DNA of 59,352 nt, filler included, from Dirinaria sp. TL-2023a (GCA_051941275.1; 4 parts of 4 records of this genome joined end to end with filler, not necessarily neighbours in it), one strand, 5' to 3'. Counted from the whole stretch's first letter, positions 1,019-44,606 are shown. Numbers and translations are program-made. The notes: generated from the letters alone by a model not told the origin.

Positions 1019-2822
1019 CTAGATCTTCACCTGCGCCGGCAATCCGACCTGCAAAACATCCAGTCCGCCCTGCAACTCGCTCTTGCCGGGCATATTGCCC
1101 CTCCGCATCAGCTCCGCGCTCTGCGCCATCACGGGATCCATCATCATACTCGCGACGGCCACCACGGTCTCGCCCTTGGCATAGAACGCCGCGAAGGAGC
1201 CCTCGTCCGGTTTCCCCTGGATCACCAAATTGTCCCATCCGTTTGGCGTGTGGCCGCAGTACCGTAGCTGTTTGCCTAGCGCGGACCAGAAGACCGGGAT
1301 GAACGGCTTCGGCTTCGAATGGGGGTGGGTGATGGTCTTCGCGACGCTGCGGCCCGCGTTCTGCGCCACGTTCCAGTGCTCGATGCGCACCGGTTTGCCG
1401 GACCCGCCGGGCCCGTGGTAGGGGTATGTGGCGATGTCGCCGATGGCGAAGACGTCGGGATGGTCGGGGACCTGGAAGCTTTCGCTGACGCGAACCGATC
1501 CGTCCTTTTCGAGCTGGATCGCGGGGTTGTCTCTCAGGTAGGAAGTTTCCGGCTTCACGCCGACGCCCAGGATGACGAGATCGGCGGGCAGAGATGTGCC
1601 GTCTTTGAGCTTCACGCTGCCGACCGCGGAGGAGTCGCTGGATGAAGGGGCGGCGCTGTCGACGGAGGCGGAGAGGTAGAATTTGACGCCGTTCTTGGCG
1701 AGGAGGCCCTGGAAGATTTTGCCGACCTCGGCGCCCATCACTCTTTCCATGGGTGCGGATTCCATGCCCACGACTGAGACGGTGTTGTTGGCGGAAAGGC
1801 AGTTTGCGACTTCCATGCCTATGAAGGAGGAACCGACGACGACGATGTTCTTGCCTTTCTTTTCGCCGACAGCGGATAGTATGCCTTTGACATCTGGGAT
1901 GGTGCGTAGCAGGAAAATGTTCCCAAGGTCTTTGAAGCCAGGCAGAGGAAGTCTATTGGGTGTACCACCTGAGGCAAGAACAAGCTTAGTATAGGCATAT
2001 GTCGCTCCCGATTTGGTGGAGACTTTTTTCGAGGAGAAATCAACGCCAGTGGCCTCATCTTCTACAACTTTGATATCAGCGTCCTTGTACCAAGCCTCGT
2101 CGCGCCATTGGAGCTTGTTCTTGTCGTCGAGCAGGGCTTTAGAAAGCTTGGTTCTGTCAATCGGTAGATTTGGCTCGCGTGTGAGCACTGTGATGCCGCC
2201 TTTGAAGTTTTGCTCGCGCAGTGCCTGGACGGCGCCCACTGCTCCGCTGCCTCCGCCAATAATGAGAACTTCTTCTGGACCTTGTGCCTGACATCTGACA
2301 TTTGGCTGTCTCCTGCTTGCTTTGATTGTGCTTTCCTCCCCTTTGATGTAGACAGCACCGCTCTTCTCCACGATCTCGAACTTAGCAAGAGGGTCAAGGG
2401 CGGGTGCGTCTTCCACGTCGCCGGTGGCAATGTTGAAGCAAGCTGACACCATTTTCTTAGTAGATTTTCTTTGCGCCAATGTTCCTGAACTGACCTCCGT
2501 GCCATGCACAGGTGAGTCGCCCATCCGGCGTGACAACGCCCAGCTTCATGGGTGCGCCATAGTGAGTACAGGCGGAGCTCAGGGCGTGTGTCTGGCCACC
2601 CTGGTTGACCAGCAAGACTTTGCCTTTCTCAATGCCTTCCACCTCTACTTCTCTCTTCTCTCCCTCCTGTAAGTCCAACGCGGAAAGACCCTTGAGTTTG
2701 AATTCTTGAGCCATGATTCTCCCTGATGTGCTGAAAGATGCAGCCCGAATGCGACCGAGCTGAAGTGATTTTCGACCGACAAGATGGGGCAATGGACGAA
2801 TGAAGGAATATAGACAGAGCAT
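1019..2822 (-). CDS. AIF-like (AIFM3/Nfrl-type) Rieske [2Fe-2S] plus FAD-dependent pyridine nucleotide-disulfide oxidoreductase. Exons 2822-2495, 2442-1019 (~583 aa; alternative ATG 2714)
   Basis: Rieske ligands CTHYGAP...CAWHG/ACFN joined across intron 2494-2443 (GTCAGT...CAG); IIGGGSG and VVGSSFIG dinucleotide-binding motifs, FAIGDIA, RIEHWNVA, PVFWS. Confidence 0.92.
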
Positions 2823-3728
2823 GTAGTAGCAGAAGGCAGTGGAAGGACTGTAGCGGAGACGGGGTGCAGTGAGTACCTTAGCTCAGGACATGGTTCTTAC
2901 CAATTGATCCTCCGTACTGGGTTTCTGCATCTCGTCATCACATCTGCAAGCGTGTTATCGATTAACAGCGTGAGCAGCGAATCAGCGACTCCCAATTGAT
3001 CATCATCCGCCGTTTTCCGTCTAACGTCTCTGGCAGCTCGGCCACCTTACCTAATCTACTTCTATGAGACTACCTTACAGTACCGTAGTAGTATGGTACA
3101 CTGATTCACTGAAGGATGATCCATGTTGCTGATCGCGGAGCTAGAGAAAGTAATGCTGCATAAGGTATGAAAGCTACAGGTCAGCACTCGTGGACCCAGA
3201 GTCTTCATCCTACAGTACAGCACTGTACATACTACTGTAAATACTGTGAAAGCGATCAGGTCTGTACTTCGCTGAGGACAAAGTCTCAAAGAGGCAAGTT
3301 TTGCGCTCCATTGGACGGGCCCATTTCGACGAACCACCCCCCTAAAGCGTGCCCAGAGGCGCTGATTCGAGCTTGTCTGTACACCCTCGTCAGCTGAATC
3401 TGCACACAGCCTCAACTTTCGGATGGCTACTACCACATTACGTGGGCAGCATTTCTTTGTAAACTGATCGGGTTGAATACCGTTGTGTTCGAAAAGTACA
3501 TGTAGTATCCATAAATTCACTGATTGAATGAACATTCTATCCATTGCCTACCTGGTGAAGGAAGTGCCAACAGACCCTTTGAAACGTCTCCCAATCGGCT
3601 AGCAATCATGTACCTTCCTTTTCCTTGATAAGGTAATCTGGATCCAAACATCGGTTGCGAATGCAAAGCAACGTAGGTACTGTGATCGCTAATTTCGTTC
3701 AAGCATAGAGAAAGGATCTACGGTAGTC

Positions 3729-14776: not shown

Positions 14777-14876
14777 NNNNNNNNNNNNNNNNNNNNNNNN
14801 NNNNNNNNNNNNNNNNNNNNTTAATTAATTAANNNNNNNNNNNNNNNNNNNNNNNNNNNNNNNNNNNNNNNNNNNN
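14777..14876. other. Scaffold gap with artificial TTAATTAATTAA spacer
   Basis: 44 N + TTAATTAATTAA + 44 N; identical construct at 29643-29742 and 44507-44606. Confidence 0.97.
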
Positions 14877-16942: not shown

Positions 16943-19900
16943 CTAATGCAACCGCCTCAATCCTTCGATAATACCCTTGATGTCTTCCACGTCTATCGCC
17001 TTACCTGTTTGGGCCCCTAGTCCTTTGCACATTTCATCCTGCATATCCTTCGTGCAATCTAGAAAGCGCTCCACCAGCTCGCCATCGACGAATCTGAAAG
17101 GTTCTTCCGCCTCTCTCACACTGTTCTTGAATGCGCGGTAGCTGTTGAAGGGGATGTCCCCGGGGCTGCGCAACATGGCCGCCATGTTGCTCTGTAGCCG
17201 CATTAATAGATCGCGGTAAGATGGCGCTATCAGGGCGAAGAGATAGATAGAGCCATCTACCTGCAAGCAGCGTCAGACTTGAGTGAACGAAGCATGAATG
17301 TCGTGCAAGACTCACAGTGCCAAGGAAGGCCTTGGGAATGACGGTTGCATTTGCCAATGTGGGAAACTCGAAGCTACGGATGCGGTTGACCATCTCTCCC
17401 AGTCGGATTTCGCTGGTGACTTCTAATCTCCGGCGATCTTCGCTCGTGACACCGCTTGTGTTTTGGTGGAGAACCATAAGATTACCTTCTGCGTCGCTTT
17501 CGAGTAGAGTGTCTGTGTCCACGTGTGCGACCGCCGTTCCCCAGGCTGTTTGGAAGTGTCTTGCTTTTTCTTCGAGAGTGTCCGGCAAACCCTCAGTTCC
17601 CCTGTTGAACTCTACTACGGAAACGCTCTTCATCAAGTCTGCTATGGCGATCAGATTACCTTTCACCGCAATGTCGATCGGCGCAGTCGATGTTCGGTAA
17701 CTGGCGGCTTTGTGAAGCGAGCTGCCTTCGAGTGTGAAAATGACGACCTGAAATGCTTTTTAGCCTGTGCATGCTGTACCATGACAGCTCTCTTACCGTC
17801 TTAACCAGCGCCGCCACGATATTGCCCTCGACGCAGCCCAGAGCGCGACAAGCTCCTCTGACGGGTAATTCTGTCACTAGCTTTAACATGCGATCTTGCG
17901 TCACTGCAAGAACCAGAATTCGGCCTCGAGCTGTGTCCGAGACTTGATCCTCCAAGTACGCCGTTCCAACGATGAACCGTTCTACGGTGTCCCCTGAGCC
18001 ATCGCGTAGATCCGCTCTTGCAACGCTTTCGACAAGCTCGTCGTCGTTCAGATCGAAAGAGGCGAGAAGCTTGAACACAACTTCGTCTACAAGCTTGAAA
18101 TGGCTTTTGACCGACTCACATCCTTCTCGCAAAGTCCTTCGAATAGTGCCGACGCCGAAGGTCTTCAAAGTGGTAGAGTAAGCTACTCTTCGTACGGTCT
18201 CTCCGATCGGTAATGTATTCACGTGAGTCGTTCGCTCAGTGTCTACGAGAGCGATCTTGAGGTCTTGCGGAGTTGCAACAGCGATAGCACCAGGGTAGGC
18301 TTCGCTATCGAAGGGACACACGCAGGTTGCCTTCTCCACCGTCACCGCTGAGTATACAATGCGTCCTTCTGAGCCATAAATTAAGCTTGGATGCTCGCAA
18401 GTTGCGAAGACACTATAAAGGCCGTCGCTAGTGGGTAACGCCTTAAAGTTGGCTTGCTGCGTACCGAGAACTATAGCTTTTCGCGCAGAGAGGCTAAATG
18501 TAGACAAATTCATAGAAAAGGTGACAACTTCACCATTCGCCATTGCTATGAACAGCGTGGGTTGTTCGCCAGGGAGAATCTGGGCCAGAAGTATGGACCG
18601 TGGCACCGAAACCGAGTCGTCGCTGATTGCCACTTCATTGATTGTCTCGAGAGTTTCAAGCTTCAGGATTGCGATACTCGTGCTTTGCCAGAATCCTGCT
18701 ATGCATATGCCGGACGAATCACGGGGTATGTGGAGGCTGGAGATCTGGCCCTCGCGCTGGAAAATTCGTCGAGCGACAACTCGAAAAGCACCGCTTGGGG
18801 TAGTATCAAGGACGACGGCTTCTGTTCCTCCGATAGCCAGACAAAGTCTTTGACTGATAGCGGAAGCAGCTGTGATGGCCTGGCCTTGCGATGGCGACCA
18901 CTCATGGACGACCATGCCATCCTCAAGGTCAATGACACTGGCTGAGGAGCTTGTGACCTGAAGAAGCAAGCTTTCCGACATATTGGCCGCTAATAGAGTA
19001 CCATGATTCAATGCCAATCCTATGTCTTCAGTCCTTTCTTCGACTTCCCCGTTATCCTGGAATTGGAATATTCGCGTCTCTTCTACAAATGAAACAAGCA
19101 ATATGTCCACATGACTCAATGCCGAAGTTGACCGTAGCGCAAACAGATCAGCTATGTGATCAGCCTCGAGCAGCAATCCAAGCTCCTCCATTCCGACTCC
19201 GCTTCGGACACTGCGAAGACTCCCGTCCTGAAATGCACCAGATCCAGTAACGATGCGTGTTTGCCCAGAAGAGTAGTCGTTCGTCTGGGCTTCGCCAGCT
19301 CGGCTTCCCATGTCCATAATAGTAAAATCTAAAATCGGTGCAATGTTGGGCAATGTCTGCATAATTCCTATAGACTTTTCCTGGATGCGGATCACTTGTG
19401 AGTCACCCTGATGCGACCCAATGTAGACAAGGCCAGAGCCCAAATAAACAAGAGTTGAGGCCCGAGAAGCCTGCCCTATCATATCGAGCTTCCACTCCAA
19501 AAGGTCGTTGTGCTCGTCTAGCAGTAGCATGAGAAAGTAGAGTTTGCCATAGTCGTCGGCCAGAAGCCAGCGCTGTGCGTCTATTTGCGCCCAAGCAACA
19601 AAGATAGAGGCTTCTTGAAGTGGCTCCACGCGGAGATTGCCATCTTTGCAATACGTGATTGATGTTTCGGCTAGTATAAGTAGACCATCTACATCGAGAT
19701 CAGACATTTGTAGTCAAAGAACGTATTTGTACATACACGCCGGAGCTGGTACTGGAATGAGGTGGCTCACTCCCGGTTCTAGATCATCATGGGCAACATC
19801 CACATCGTCTAGATCCACGCTCCCGGCTTCTCCATGACTGCCAGCTGCGTAGTCTAGCGTTCTCACAACCAAGCAAGCTTTTTGACGATTATTTTCATAC

Positions 19901-20535
19901 AGGAGAGCAAGTTTTGGTTTCGCCTTTGTTCCCTGGGGAAAGTGCAGAAACGCAGAAGAACGGACAAAAAGCTCTGGAATTCTTGCAGAGACTGGTTCCC
20001 CTAAACAACCCGGCTCTTGAGCGCTTTTGTGCTTCAATCTAGGTTGACTAATAGGTACTACGGTGATAATGCCATCAAAAAGCTGAAGAGTCATATATCG
20101 ACGCGAAGGATCAATCAAGCATCGATCCTGGGTTTGAGAATCTCGCAGCGTTTTGTCAGCTTGATCATGATAACTTTGCTCAGTACGTAGCTGGCTTTTA
20201 GCTGCATCCCAAGAGACTGTGAAGTATTTATAACGATCTGTACCAATGAAAAGGTGCTCTGTTCTCGACGTTGTAGGCTGTAGTCCCTCGAGCATGGTAA
20301 TCTTTCCGTAGACGGCTCTGGTGTGCTTATGAACGAGGCCTTCATCGGTCTCAATATATATTTCTATCCGATTTGACTTCCTGAATTGAATACATAAGAT
20401 TATCAAATAACACGAATAGGCAATGCAACCTTGAACTTACGCTACGATCAAGCACTCGTCATCGGGGCTGAGGAAGCAAAGTTTCAAAGCATGTCTGACA
20501 CTGCTCGACCGATGTATTGGGGCGATAAAGGCCAT
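16943..20535 (-). CDS. DDB1: DNA damage-binding protein 1 (CUL4 adaptor). Exons 20535-20441, 20380-19737, 19688-17797, 17747-17316, 17260-16943 (~1126 aa)
   Basis: MAFIAPIHRSSSVRHA, YIGSHQGDSQ, PNIAPILDF, IVTGSGAFQDGSLRSVRSGVG, IADLMKSV, FVDGELVERFLD, ends IEGLRRLH; spliced length matches DDB1. Confidence 0.95.
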
Positions 20536-21125
20536 GATGAGAGTCAATTGTGAGGAAAGCGTTTTTCACATCTCAAGAATCGTGTAGCTACCCAAGTCCA
20601 AGCACGTGTAGATTAAGAAATACGTTAATGATTGGATTCAAAGCTTGCCAAGGAGCTTAGCGCTGGCAGCGCTGGCGGCAATCGCGGCGAGCGCGTCTAT
20701 TTCAAATAGTGAAAAAGTCCAGTGCCAGTTAATGGTCGTTAACCCTTTAGATCCAGATTTCAATGGCAAATAGGAGGTCGCCTTGTTTATGGGTATGAAA
20801 ACTTTAGTTAGGAAAATCTTTCAGCTTATGGGCGATGTTTTGGCTCCGAATATGGTGTGCCTGCCAGTCTGTGTAACTCAGGTCCTGAACATGCTGGCCA
20901 TAGGCTTACGGGGTGACCTATGTGTCGACTCGAGTAAAAGTAAAGCTAGAATTAACCGAAATTAGTGTCATCTCGGTTAGGGTCACTAGTATGTCTATCT
21001 CTGCACTTTCTTCTCGACCGCCATAATTATCTTCATCATAAACCACCTTATCATTGTCTTCATCTCCATCATCAACCCCCTTACATTCTATTTTATTCTA
21101 TTTCATAGACCTCAAGTCTAACAGG

Positions 21126-22897
21126 ATGGCGCGAAACAAGAAAGGACGCACGGCCAATATCAAAGTAAATCAACTTGCCCGTGAAGCTGCTAGATTGGGG
21201 CTTCACGATACAAAGCCATCGCCCCCATCACCTAAGATTCCGCCTGAGCCGCTTTCGCCCCCGCCTCTACCACCTAAAATGCTAGCCATGGACATGAAGC
21301 GCATTTTGTTGGACCGAAAGCGTGTATGGGTTGAGGCCGGTCTAGTGGCTCTTCCTGATGAAGAACCCGGCAGCGAATTTGGTCCGCCTAAGGCCACTTC
21401 TCTTTCGGACTACAAGAAAATCAAGATGCCACCAGGCCAGGAGTATGATCCTGTCATCAGACAATGGAATATGTACATGAATTCCAATCCAGACACTCAC
21501 GTCATGTTGTTACTATATCCGGAGAAGTTCCCAAATCAACTGTACAACGTCAAAACAGGGCAAAAACCTATCGGAATGCGGATCAAACCAAACTTTGGAT
21601 TAGTAGAAGTCGACATCCCGCTCGATCCCTATGCTCCCTCATTTGACAAGGTGCGAGGCGTCATCTACGGCGAAGCCTTACGTAAGAGCAAAGTCTTGAA
21701 GGAGAGAGGTGGTGCTTACGGCCTTGCCGGAGGCTTTGGAGTAGATGAAGCAGACGAAGGGAAATCGAAGAAAGGTGGTACAAAGAAACGTGGCACGAAG
21801 CAAAGTGGAGCTGCAGCATCCACGAGTCGTTCCACCGAAGAAGCTGAGCCCACGGTTGAAGAGCTGCTGGCAGATTACGACAATGCTGTAAAGAATGGCC
21901 ACGTCATGAATAAGATGATTCTTGGTGGGAAAATCATTCCCTGGACTCCAGAAAACCCCAACTTCTTCGTGGGTCATTTCGAGAAATGTAAGAGCTATAT
22001 ACCATTGTACCGTGGCCCGACTTTGGCGATACTAACCGTGACCCAAGCGAATGTTTTCTTCACCAAGGTCAATGCGATTTGCGCACTACGTCCTCAGCTA
22101 ATCCATCTCGACGCACTGAACGATCTCAACAAGTCTACTTTGAAAATGCAGGCTGGCGCTGACACGGAAGCCAACGAAGCAGTCAATGTCAACATGACTA
22201 TCAAGAAATCGGAAGGTAAATCGACGGAGAATGCCGGAGACGCAAAGGAGATTGCACGGCTGTTGAGAGCCATGCGTGCGGAGCCGTGGCAGCACCTCTC
22301 CTGGGTAGATAAAGATGTGAGTAGTCGCATTGTATTCATAGCTTGATTAAATTATATGCTCACCGTTTTTAGACCCAAGAAGCGCACGACAAATTCGACG
22401 AGATCTTTGTTCGCGACAAAACCACTTTGGCGAAGACGCCCAAATTGGTGAGCAACATCACCCCCGAGCAATGGCTTGACGTCATCAGCTGCCCTCGCAT
22501 CGACCCGTTGAATCCCAAGAAGCGATCTATGAGAACCCCGGCAGATGTCGATGATCTATCTCCGACTGACAGCGAATCCGATTATGACTATTACATGGAG
22601 ACTGAGTCGGAGGCTGAAGAAGTGGCTGGGGCCGCCAAAGGTCCGGTGGAAGCTCCTCGATCCGGAGCTGAAAACCCAAGTTCCGAGGATGAGCCTGGAG
22701 AGACGCCTGAGATGGCCAAAGAGAGGGTGGAAGCTCTCCGGGCCTGGGAAGCTGAACAAGCGCATGCCGGAGCGCTTGAGGAGGACGAAGATTCCTGGGA
22801 AGATGAGGAACACGGGGAAGACGAGGAGAATGAGGACGATGTTGAGGACTTCCCAGATGAGGAAGGTGACTACTGGGAGGATGAGGATGACAACTGA
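21126..22897 (+). CDS. RPC37: RNA polymerase III subunit Rpc5/C37-like (Sin_N domain) with acidic tail. Exons 21126-21987, 22048-22316, 22373-22897 (~551 aa)
   Basis: DPVIRQWNMYM...MLLLYP...MRIKPNFGLVEVDIPLD, LRPQLIHLDA, MRAEPWQHLSWVDKD, WLDVISCPRIDP match the fungal Rpc5 pattern; N-terminus is divergent. Confidence 0.72.
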
Positions 22898-23512
22898 GAC
22901 AATGATGGATAGGTAGCACATAGTAGGCGCCGGAATGAAATCGCTAGGGCACAAGGCAGCTGTTCAATACTTCTAATTTACTTTGTTCGCGGCTACTTGG
23001 TGCTTTGGTCTTTCCCATACTACAGGCGGCAAACCCGAAGCGTGGCAACAATTATTGTTTTCAGTCACTGAACTCATTCAAAGCCTTCGATTATTGATGG
23101 CGTGGGCATATGTGGAAGTCCGCTGATACCATGACTCGCTGCACAGATCATTTAAAGAAATGAAAGTTCTCCTAGTGCTCGCTTGTAACAGCTGACCTCG
23201 ATGAGAACGAAGCGTATACATTGTAAAAATGGTAGTATCCTACTGAGCTTCATAGCAGAAATCGAGCAAGTGCATTAGGATATCGTAAGCCCACGCAGTG
23301 CTGGGTGCTGAATCGTATTTCTTGACAGGCTGATTTATGCCAAGAAATTTGGTACCGTGCCCAAAACTGCTCCAAACAAAGGCGTCGAATGATTGTCCAG
23401 TAGAACATATCAATACATAGATCAAATCATGCCGAACGGCTTTTTGCGAATTGGAAAGACCTAGAATAATTTAAACCAAGAAAAAAAGAAAGGAAAAAAA
23501 AAAAGAAATAAA

Positions 23513-23672
23513 GAGGCCTGGGGGCTCGAACCCCAGCCATATCCGTCGTGCAAGGAGTCATCCGGCCCACTAGGCGATATCCGAAGATAACCTAACCCGC
23601 AATTACAACAGCTAGACAGTGCGGTTCTCGTACACTCGGGATAGACCACTTGTAACTTAGACCATGGGCCCC
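23513..23672 (-). ncRNA. Putative Pol III-transcribed, tRNA-like structured RNA (~160 nt); not a canonical cloverleaf
   Basis: Minus strand: GGGGCCCATGGTCTAAG (A-box-like TGGTCTAA) ... TGGGG-TTCGAGC-CCCCA (perfect T-arm/B box) GGCCTC followed by TTTATTTCTTTTTTTTTTT terminator. TATA-like TATATTAT at about -30 and CAA just upstream; terminal pairing GGGGCC/GGCCTC; internal cUUCGg hairpin. Confidence 0.7.
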
Positions 23673-24314
23673 GCGTTGGAAAATCAGTCTACTAAAATAA
23701 TATATCAACACCAACCAATGTCTTTCATCCACACAACTCCAGAGCCTTTAAAAAAGGCAACGTACATATTTCGGCAACACTTTTTCATTTTTTCATCTGC
23801 CACTACTAATTATTTAACTTTTCATACCTCTCTTCTCGACTGGTCAGGCAATGTTCAAAGGAAGTTCTTGAGCAGTATAACGGATAAAGTTCGGCTAATT
23901 TCATCGAACTCCATTGCAATCTCGTTGTCGTTCCCAATCTCAGTTCAATAACTATCATCTGGCTAGACTGGCATCTACACAGTGTGTAGATTGGTAAAGC
24001 AGCAACCTACATCATGTTGGCAGTTGCATTGGCTTATTTTGGGGCTTCAAAATTGCGCAATCACGACGCGGTACCTTTTGTAGGCGAACCAGAGGGATTT
24101 CTACGTTTCTGGTAAGAGGTCAAGACACGAAGGGCTTATGCTTTAGTGCTTTGGGATAATCGAGGTCGTTTTTAAGCTTTCTTGGCCGGCGTGTATAAGC
24201 GCTCATTCAACGCCTGCGCCGCTGCGGTCCAACATGCAGCTTCCCGGACTTGGCACGATCCAAGATCGCGTTTCGGAAGATGCGTCGTGTGGAAGGGCGA
24301 GGGCCTGTTCTGGA

Positions 24315-25856
24315 ATGTCTCTACCTGGTCTCGGGCTTTCAGCGGCGCCAGAAGCTCAATCTCATCCTCCCATCGTCCATGAGCTGAAAGAAGAAACTGA
24401 ATGGCGATTTGAAGTCGCCTTCGGAACCAATGTTGAGGTTAAAGTAATTCTTTCATCCAGGCGCTGGATGGTTCGATCTTCTGGCTGACAGCGATTTACA
24501 AATAGCTCCTTTCCGGCGATGCCGAATTATTCGGTACGGAACTTGCTCAACAACAAACATACACTTTCGTCGGGATAAAGGCCGCTATTTTTACTTGGCA
24601 TGGCTGCCGTTTGGAAGTCACGGGCGATTGCCAGTCCGATTACATCGCGGAGGAAACTCCTATGGCTATGTACACAAACTTGCATTTCGCATTGGAGAGA
24701 ATAAGATATCAAGCCATCCTCAACAGACAGGAAGGACCAAGGGTACTCATTTTGGGACCCGAAAATGCAGGAAAGACAAGCCTGGTGAAGCTTCTAACTG
24801 CCCATGCTATACGGTCTGGCAGACAGCCTGTTGCCGTAAATCTAGACCCTAAGGAAGGCTTACTGAGTATTCCTGGAACACTTTCATCGGCTGCTTTCGC
24901 ATCGATTATCGACGTGGAAGAAGGCTGGGGCAGTAGTCCAACTGATGGCCCAACGCAAGTGCCTGTCAAAGTTCCCTTAGTTTATTATTATGGGATGGCA
25001 AATCCAGAAGAAAAGACCGATTTGTACAAATCCCTAGTACAAAGGCTCGCCTTATCAGTAATGAGCAGATTGAACGAAGATGTGGAGGCGAAAGTGACTG
25101 GCTGCATTATTGACACTCCAGGAATCATAAGCCAAGGCAAAGGAGGATACGACTTGATCCATCATATTGTCTCGGAATTTTCGGGTACGTCATGTTACAG
25201 CATGGACTGTAGTGGTTGGGAACTCATATGAATGCAGTCAATGTGCTGATTGTGCTGGGTTCGGAACGCTTGTACAGTGATATGCTTCGGCGATTCAACG
25301 GTCACAAGGTAGGCGAAACGGAGACTGCGACAGTCCTCAAACTAGATAAGTCGGGGGGCTGCGTCGACCGCGACCAGGAATATCTTCAGAAATTTCGACT
25401 AGAACAAGTTCGAGAGTACTTTTTTGGAGATACTCGAAACCCTTTGAGCCCTCACACTCAGCAGATTGACTTCAGTCAACTGACTATATACATAATTGCC
25501 GAAAGTACGTGTTCTATAGCTACTGCGGTGCTCGGTGTACTGCTGACACAAGGGCAGCATCCGCATTACTCTCGTCGTTACTGCCTGGCGGAGAGGAGGA
25601 GAGTGGGATACCCTCTATGTTCGAAAAGGTTTCTCCATCTCCACAAATGCAGAATTCCGTGCTGGCGATTGTGCAAGCAGAGCCAAACGACTCGCAGGAG
25701 AGCATACGGGATGCCAGCGTCATTGGTTTCATTTATGTTGCAGAGGTAGACGAAAAGAAGAAGAAGCTGAGAATTTTGACCCCAGCAAGCGGACGGTTAC
25801 CCAATAAAGCTGTAATTTGGGGAGCATGGCCGGAGGCAGGAGATTTAGGTAGCTAG
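24315..25856 (+). CDS. CLP1: mRNA cleavage/polyadenylation factor Clp1 (polynucleotide 5'-OH kinase family). Exons 24315-24443, 24506-25184, 25238-25504, 25558-25856 (~457 aa)
   Basis: MSLPGLG, EWRFEVAFG, LLSGDAELFGTELA, YIAEETPM, P-loop GPENAGKTS, GWGSSP, IIDTPG, LDKSGGCVDRD, IGFIYVAEVDEKK. Confidence 0.93.
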
Positions 25857-29642: not shown

Positions 29643-29742
29643 NNNNNNNNNNNNNNNNNNNNNNNNNNNNNNNNNNNNNNNNNNNNTTAATTAATTAANN
29701 NNNNNNNNNNNNNNNNNNNNNNNNNNNNNNNNNNNNNNNNNN
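29643..29742. other. Scaffold gap with artificial TTAATTAATTAA spacer
   Basis: N-run with central spacer; hides most of the cytidine deaminase gene. Confidence 0.97.
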
Positions 29743-44506: not shown

Positions 44507-44606
44507 NNNNNNNNNNNNNNNNNNNNNNNNNNNNNNNNNNNNNNNNNNNNTTAATTAATTAANNNNNNNNNNNNNNNNNNNNNNNNNNNNNNNNNNNNNN
44601 NNNNNN
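44507..44606. other. Scaffold gap with artificial TTAATTAATTAA spacer
   Basis: N-run with central spacer. Confidence 0.97.

Follow-up and report, generated by a model that had tools for sequence, protein, structure and literature searches.

What is the tRNA-like element that lies on the minus strand between the genes RPC5 and CLP1, antisense to both, in a 59,352-nucleotide (nt) stretch of DNA of Dirinaria sp. TL-2023a (GCA_051941275.1), the whole of which, filler included, is called the window here? [quoted passage not shown] That picture is not supported by the analysis described below; what does hold is the broader claim that the element is tRNA-derived, carries Pol III-type signals and is under selection, to judge from its place, its spacing and its sequence in relatives. 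The answer we favour, with somewhat better than an even chance of being right, is that of a relic: a tRNA gene that has lost its decoding role and is kept as a Pol III type-2 unit, possibly one that goes back to two adjoining tRNA genes. As far as literature searches reach the element is undescribed, and it is best filed in the known class of exapted tRNA-gene relics; no RNA of this kind was found, by title or abstract, in the literature on tRNA-like Pol III RNAs of Pezizomycotina or lichens, or on TFIIIC, B boxes and extra TFIIIC (ETC) sites in filamentous fungi.

The evidence that carries this answer comes from relatives. Their loci are stretches of metagenome contigs around relatives of the CLP1 exon (52 loci, 24-72% identity), 16 of which have RPC5 upstream of CLP1, with both genes on one strand. 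On sequence and on a CLP1 tree, these 16 can be sorted into six syntenic lineages: L001; L002; L003-L007 with L049 (the L003 group); L008/11/12/21; L009/25; and L019/20. In three of the six, namely L001, L002 and the L003 group (8 loci), the RPC5-CLP1 spacer holds a tRNA-like unit on the minus strand, at a matching distance from CLP1; with the window counted, the element is kept at the syntenic site in four of seven lineages. Canonical T arms, that is, 5 base pairs (bp) closing a TTCRANN loop, are confined to the minus strand of that spacer when both strands of 385,575 bases are surveyed, their carriers being the window, L001, L002, L003-L007 and L049.

Is the arm itself preserved as a helix? 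Six distinct syntenic B-box matches, collected with no requirement for pairing, keep 16 of their 18 outer T-stem pairs, and these vary in identity (T-A/G-C/G-C, C-G/G-C/G-C, G-C/T-A/G-C or G-U). The only other B-box matches are two distinct ones located in the coding part of RPC5, and of their 6 outer pairs 0 are kept. On these comparisons the T-stem is the only RNA helix of the element with comparative support. When pairs were counted over an alignment of six T arms, 29 of 30 cells were paired; this count was dropped as evidence, since five of the rows had been pre-filtered for pairing.

The other signals recur with similar regularity. Each spacer of 1.25-1.6 kb contains one TATAWW word (TATATT in the 1251-nt minus-strand spacer of the window), placed at -32 in the window, -35 in L001, -33 in L002 and -35/-33 in L003; for each lineage, the probability that such a word falls by chance into a 9-nt slot is 0.006-0.011. 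An A-box match with at most one mismatch occurs inside the element in all four lineages, against a background of 152 in 771,150 positions; in L001 and L003 it is placed as in a tRNA, 7-8 nt from the 5' end, while the good match of the window is internal. Behind the last T arm, the window, L002 and the L003 group have bipartite T-runs (T7-T11). The relatives' elements are longer, 210-280 nt against 160 nt in the window. Taken singly, the motifs of the window are unremarkable: the B-box word GGTTCGANNCC has a single match in the whole window, located in the T arm, and at least one match arises by chance in 34 of 100 shuffles of the window. It is the comparison with relatives that lifts the element above chance. 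A perfect B box, an A box with one mismatch, no cloverleaf and the same site in relatives are together what a relic of this class presents.

An observation of its own concerns the L003 group, where four T-arm-like hairpins stand in a row over about 130 nt before the T-runs (L003 2673-2830, minus strand; also L004-L007 and L049). Their sequences are GTGGG-TTCGATT-CCCAC, TTAGG-TTCGATT-CCTAT, GTGGG-TCCAATT-CCCAC and TTGGG-TTCAATT-CCCAA, and the arrangement is reminiscent of B-box arrays.

No tRNA-like unit is present in the spacers of L008/11/12/21 and L009/25, and in L019/20 there is just a degenerate B-like word with a T6. On the CLP1 tree the element-bearing lineages do not form one group, L001 sitting with the element-less L009 and L008; it follows that the element goes back to the ancestor of the clade and that it has disappeared or decayed several times since. 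The clade in question comprises fungi related to the organism of the window, and probably associated with lichens; several of its lineages have kept the element and others have lost it. In L009 and L025 the RPC5-CLP1 spacer is also much longer, and its minus strand at about 2400-3550 reads like an extra coding region.

Could the unit instead be a tRNA-derived short interspersed element (SINE), or another dispersed repeat, that happened to land here, or else a tRNA pseudogene in neutral decay? A tRNA origin, a variable inner part, the T-arm duplications of the L003 group and the loss of the element in some lineages all suit such a history. However, no second copy was found in the 59-kb window, and no T arm lies off the syntenic spot in the 385,575 bases; the same place and strand recur in four lineages, although nothing else in their spacers can be aligned, and neutral decay would erase a perfect 17-nt hairpin and a TATA word. 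We regard this origin as quite improbable.

A second layer of conservation has to be set beside the first. Between L002 and L003, the 5' domain of the element is identical at 100 of 119 positions (84%) and its core at 55 of 58. A 42-nt identical run inside the elements is the longest in the 2.6 kb compared, coding sequence included; the next longest (35 nt) lies in the CLP1 coding sequence. Outside the element, 1409 of 2546 positions are identical (55%), again with coding sequence included, and the spacers are otherwise unalignable. Conservation is looser in the 3' part, where the T arms lie and where there are indels and duplications. A second comparison uses RNA data, namely Logan contigs from three runs labelled lichen metagenome, all from one sample of one study. 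Over 22600-24800 these contigs are 95-99% like the window, and their source is therefore another strain or a close relative. Between the window and this sample there are 0 differences in the 132 nt of the exon that overlaps the element, against 47 in 1326 nt elsewhere (run X2; Poisson P 0.009). Two layers are thus present: Pol III-type signals kept across lineages, and an inner sequence that is also constrained within a lineage.

The features of the window on which the argument draws are collected in Table 1.

Table 1. Features of the element and of its surroundings, in window coordinates.
Feature	Position	Strand	Remarks
tRNA-like element	23513..23672	-	5' GGGGCC to 3' GGCCTC; limits set in the earlier note
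GGGGCC	23672-23667	-	5' end of element; partner of GGCCTC
TGGTCTA, two copies 16 nt apart	23642..23664	-	D-loop/A-box-like; second copy within AAGTGGTCTA
Possible inner 72-nt tRNA relic	23513..23584	-	A box, D-loop with GG, perfect T arm; numbering by eye
Best A-box match, TCGCCTAGTGG	23577-23567	-	1 mismatch to TRGCNNAGTGG; starts 45 nt before the B box
T arm, TGGGG-TTCGAGC-CCCCA	23535-23519	-	5 bp with loop TTCGAGC; perfect pairing
B box, GGTTCGAGCCC	23532-23522	-	Inside the T arm; perfect
GGCCTC	23518-23513	-	Directly 3' of the T arm; can pair with GGGGCC
T-rich tract, TTTATTTC-T11-CCTTTC-T7	23512-23481	-	Pol III terminator-like
TATATT	23704-23699	-	-32 from the tRNA-like 5' end
CAA	23677-23675	-	Read in the sequence
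First exon seen	24010..24123	-	X1: 114 nt with 14 other letters, 1 gap
Second skipped stretch, 77 nt	23933..24009	-	GT..GG in window DNA after an allowed 1-nt shift; acceptor non-canonical here
Middle exon	23766..23932	-	RNA contigs
74-nt intron, GTACGT...TTTTAG	23692..23765	-	Joint 23766/23691 in all 3 runs
Last exon seen	23560..23691	-	3 runs; 0 other letters in 132 nt
RSE1/CPSF1-type gene	17656-20406	-	Neighbourhood gene
RPC5 (Pol III subunit)	21054..22897	+	Pfam PF04801, E 4.7e-14
CLP1	24298..25749	+	Pfam CLP1_P, E 2.3e-28; divergent from the spliced minus-strand transcript

How well does the element itself resemble a tRNA gene? The hallmarks that the earlier note had listed for a Pol III gene, namely a T arm with its B box, a TATA-like word near -30, a CAA near the start and an oligo-T tract, are all in the sequence; the TATA-like word is even kept in four of four lineages, but it also forms part of the 3' end of a 74-nt GT..AG intron, discussed below. 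The T-rich tract begins T3AT3C, followed by T11, CCTTTC and T7; read on the plus strand, 23481..23512 is an A-run with AATAAA. The A box is a more delicate matter. The 5' word proposed for it exists in the two TGGTCTA copies, which line up with the A-box words that L001 and L003 have, but neither copy fits the A-box consensus within one mismatch, and the good match lies inside the element. A distance of 45 nt from the start of the A box to the B box is ordinary tRNA spacing, and because the internal match has exactly this spacing, 23584-23513 may be the core of the old tRNA gene. The acceptor and anticodon stems of this inner stretch are unpaired now, and ARAGORN does not call it. A decayed dimeric (two-tRNA) gene was also considered and set aside as speculation, the spacings of the B-box-like words fitting it poorly.

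A natural objection is that the gene may still work. With its threshold lowered to noise level (-ps90), ARAGORN draws on the element a tRNA-Thr(AGT) whose intron is 87 nt long, and the T arm does have the expected GTTCRANNC loop of a B box. That cloverleaf, however, has G at position 33, an intron after 38 rather than at 37/38, a weak D stem and a mismatched acceptor stem; its anticodon-loop sequence is not kept in relatives, and the same setting yields four calls over 59 kb, the other three of which are plainly false. At default settings, with or without introns, ARAGORN finds 0 tRNA genes in the window, and Rfam returns no tRNA-like match on the element at E up to 10. The element thus lacks a cloverleaf, whether by ARAGORN at normal threshold or by RF00005, and has neither U33 nor a 37/38 intron. 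A working tRNA gene is, in our view, very hard to credit.

The same tools agree with the statement that the element belongs to no known RNA family: across the whole window, Rfam gives 0 matches at gathering score. Among the relatives, ARAGORN at default settings finds nothing in 21 loci and, with introns allowed, makes one doubtful call in all 52, in L048; Rfam finds nothing at gathering score in 12 loci, and noise alone at E up to 10 on L003 and L002. Real tRNA genes, which would have served for a comparison of upstream TATA words, are absent from the window and the 52 loci, the sole ARAGORN call, that in L048, looking false. Weak Rfam matches to C/D-box small nucleolar RNAs were seen at 23675-23734 on the minus strand, spanning an intron-exon border (snoU18, 17.3 bits, E 2.9; snoZ157, 14.4 bits, E 7.9). 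They are far below gathering scores and probably noise.

Another question is whether the fold that makes the element look so convincing on paper is a real one. According to the earlier note, a Pol III RNA of about 160 nt would close end to end by an acceptor-like stem and act in trans, like tmRNA or YrlA, through a structured domain. The pairings exist as drawn: GGGGCC and GGCCTC can pair, the inner helices and the hairpin with the cUUCGg loop form as written (checked by eye), and the minimum free energy (MFE) structure retains the end-to-end stem, the T arm and two inner hairpins. The constraint on the inner part within lineages would also suit an RNA with a task of its own. Yet the 160 nt reach an MFE of -52.1 kcal/mol, where shuffles average -54.2 (z +0.52), 136 of 200 shuffles folding at least as well, and two relatives' elements give z -1.04 and -0.65, no energy signal against shuffles either.

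Comparison is no kinder to this tRNA mimic. Reading L001, L002 and L003 by eye shows no equivalent of the closing stem; in the L003 group there is not one T-arm-like hairpin but a row of four, and the search for tmRNA by ARAGORN is empty. With RNAalifold on L002 and the L003 group, only two effectively different element sequences being alignable across lineages, 2 of 53 predicted pairs are changed on both sides and the covariation term is -0.41. The inner domain is unalignable across lineages and not common to them, which argues against a conserved target in trans. Stems picked by eye near the T arm (L002 CCACGAC/GTTGTGG, L003 TCTAAC/GTTAGG) were rejected, their columns differing in the alignments and about 0.3 such stems per lineage being expected by chance. 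The mimic is therefore rated improbable. There is a caution here for RNA-gene hunting: a hand-drawn fold may convince without any energetic or comparative support, and a "promoter" may double as a splice site.

This last remark leads to the RNA that has been seen. In the contigs there is a spliced minus-strand transcript, with exons 24123/24078-24010, 23932-23766 and 23691-23560, and the 5' part of the element belongs to it: the last exon begins 19 nt before GGGGCC and covers the 5' 112 nt of the element, while the TATA-like word lies in the last 13 nt of the preceding intron. The acceptor of that intron (TTTTAG|TAG, 23686-23694, minus strand) is a tandem one of the NAGNAG type, of which the contigs use the first AG only. 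About 170 nt separate the start of the transcript from the first contig of CLP1, and a divergent promoter region is therefore common to both. It is poor in open reading frames (ORFs), offering 19 and 40 amino acids and one 72-codon frame without ATG; a peptide product was considered and rejected, as the short ORFs are unconserved in the loci (best tblastn E 0.26). The upstream exons are the part of the transcript that has diverged most from the RNA sample, with 7 of 69 and 14 of 114 other letters. Contigs of all three runs stop at 23560 with no loose end, and 23433-23559 is uncovered; contigs of one sample cannot show RNA ends, and this stop is uninformative on the 3' end, on a roadblock and on an absence of the T arm. 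A separate low-depth contig, present in one of the three runs, covers 23281-23432, between the RPC5 3' region and the T-runs.

Could this spliced, non-coding transcript of RNA polymerase II (Pol II) be the functional unit, with the element as its last exon and the AT-rich word as an intron 3' end, no promoter at all? In such a case the T arm, with a local stem (GGGCC at 23568-23564 pairing with GGCCT), would be a tRNA-like 3'-end signal cut by RNase P and RNase Z, as in MALAT1/mascRNA, where a tRNA-like structure directs 3'-end processing by these two enzymes. The spliced contigs speak for it, joining 24010/23932 and 23766/23691 and covering 23560-23691 in three runs of one sample, as do the lack of a long ORF, the identity of the exon between two strains (0/132), and the GTACGT/GTATGC donors and AAG/CAG acceptors found by eye upstream of the L002, L003 and L019 elements. 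On the other hand, a splice acceptor needs no TATAWW, and yet this word is unique and at fixed distance in four of four lineages. Processing by RNase P and RNase Z needs neither A-box words nor T-runs after the T arm, the contigs pass the predicted RNase P site by about 10 nt, and the upstream exons are the least conserved. The proposal is unlikely on balance, but since the conservation of the inner part within lineages suggests that the RNA matters, be it as a Pol III product or as an exon of a long non-coding RNA, it is kept as the main rival.

Some further facts complete the picture of the neighbourhood, which is that of fungal DNA. The RPC5 gene converges on the element, its stop codon standing about 580 nt from the T-run, and RNA contigs joined to its coding sequence extend to 23096. 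Those of CLP1 start at 24291-24310 and show a GT..AG intron at 24444-24505; a gene for a Lon protease lies beyond CLP1. Elsewhere in the window there are six 44-nt runs of N (14777-14820, 14833-14876, 29643-29686, 29699-29742, 44507-44550 and 44563-44606), which form three pairs about 14,865 nt apart; so regular a spacing looks like masking, not like assembly gaps.

Returning to the tRNA-gene relic, how might it have arisen, and what might it do? A tRNA gene would have stopped decoding in the ancestor of the clade, retaining its TATA word, A box, B box with T arm, and terminator. TFIIIC would bind the B and A boxes and then place TFIIIB on the TATA box, and Pol III would make a short RNA, of about 160 nt here and 210-280 nt in relatives, whose inner part is lineage-specific. 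In cis, the unit would form a boundary that separates the converging RPC5 from the non-coding transcript of the CLP1 promoter. What lineages have in common is confined to the Pol III signals, and for this reason the function that lasts most likely resides in the unit as such, be it bound or transcribed; a role of the RNA in trans is second in line. Binding by TFIIIC and Pol III, a Pol III RNA and an effect on the neighbouring genes are all parts of this scheme that we infer.

A number of points weigh against it. The spliced Pol II transcript is all the RNA that has been seen, and it crosses the TATA word and the A-box region. In yeast, tRNA genes bound by TFIIIB block Pol II, and no readthrough was seen at any of them (PMC5052057); therefore, the unit would not be fully occupied in the cells that make the transcript. 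In the window, the A-box-like words on the 5' side are poor ones, and the good A box is internal, far from the TATA word. L001 lacks a T-run of at least five after its last T arm. Loss or decay in three of the six syntenic lineages implies that the element is dispensable. The proposed orthology of window and relatives depends on place, strand and short motifs: blastn gave no match at E <= 0.01 for 23430-24200 against the 52 loci, and nhmmer, with profiles and single sequences in both directions at E <= 10, found nothing on the element except the T arm of L001 (E 1.5), although units recognisable by synteny and short motifs do occur in three of the six lineages. Lastly, a platform acting purely in cis does not explain why the inner part is conserved within lineages.

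With which known systems can the element be compared? The tmRNA/YrlA class is not a good home for it, as the end-to-end stem is not kept in L001-L003 and ARAGORN draws no tmRNA. Vault RNA, mascRNA and other tRNA-like RNAs, made by Pol III or processed by RNase P, are alike in having a 5' A box, a 3' B box or T-arm-like hairpin, a variable middle and an oligo-T, but for the element there is no sequence or Rfam match. General likenesses may be drawn, too, to the D-loops of type II tRNAs, to the TATA-dependent Pol III genes of fission yeast and to dimeric tRNA genes. ETC sites consist of B boxes and are not known to have a TATA word, an A box or a terminator, or to need a paired T-stem. Like these sites, and like the B-box arrays at chromatin boundaries of fission yeast, the element has conserved B boxes between Pol II genes, and the L003 group has tandem B-box-like words; unlike ETC sites, it has a TATA word, an A-box word, T-runs and a paired T-stem, and it does not belong in a class defined by the B box alone.

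The closest relatives in kind are in baker's yeast, where ZOD1 is an ancient tRNA-Ile gene, weakly transcribed by Pol III, and iYGR033c/ETC9 is a relic of a tDNA-Arg (PMC5356446). The element resembles them in being a decayed, non-decoding tRNA gene with A and B boxes kept, located between Pol II genes and retained in relatives. It differs from them in being larger (160 nt; 210-280 nt in relatives), with a fixed TATA word and strong T-runs, in having an inner part constrained within lineages and, in one lineage, four T-arm hairpins, and in overlapping an exon of a spliced Pol II transcript. Relics of tRNA genes as platforms for Pol III and TFIIIC are known from a handful of baker's yeast sites. 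If the reading proposed here is true, it adds an example in filamentous, probably lichen-forming ascomycetes, recognised from a conserved place and conserved signals alone.

A last comparison concerns RPC5 itself. In mammals a MIR, which is a tRNA-derived SINE, lies antisense in the first intron of Polr3e, where it is conserved and heavily occupied by Pol III; head-on transcriptional interference from it brings the expression of Polr3e down, and the authors suggest that Pol III is under negative feedback in this way (Yeganeh et al. 2017, PMC5358760). There is a likeness: both are tRNA-derived Pol III-type units, kept across species and antisense to the gene for the same subunit (POLR3E = RPC5), RPC5 being a plus-strand and the element a minus-strand feature both in the window and in eight loci of three lineages. 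The element differs in standing about 580 nt past the RPC5 stop codon, not in an intron, and in being single-copy as far as seen, with no SINE family behind it. It is tempting, if a long shot, to see in the relic a sensor of Pol III activity: an active Pol III unit, retained head-on at the 3' flank of the very gene whose product governs how Pol III initiates and terminates, whose occupancy, or read-through past whose T-runs into the 3' region of RPC5, would tune the output of RPC5. Were this the case, fungi would have invented on their own the feedback proposed for MIR in mammalian Polr3e, and were the parallel with MIR to hold, Pol III feedback by way of an antisense tRNA-derived unit would have arisen twice.

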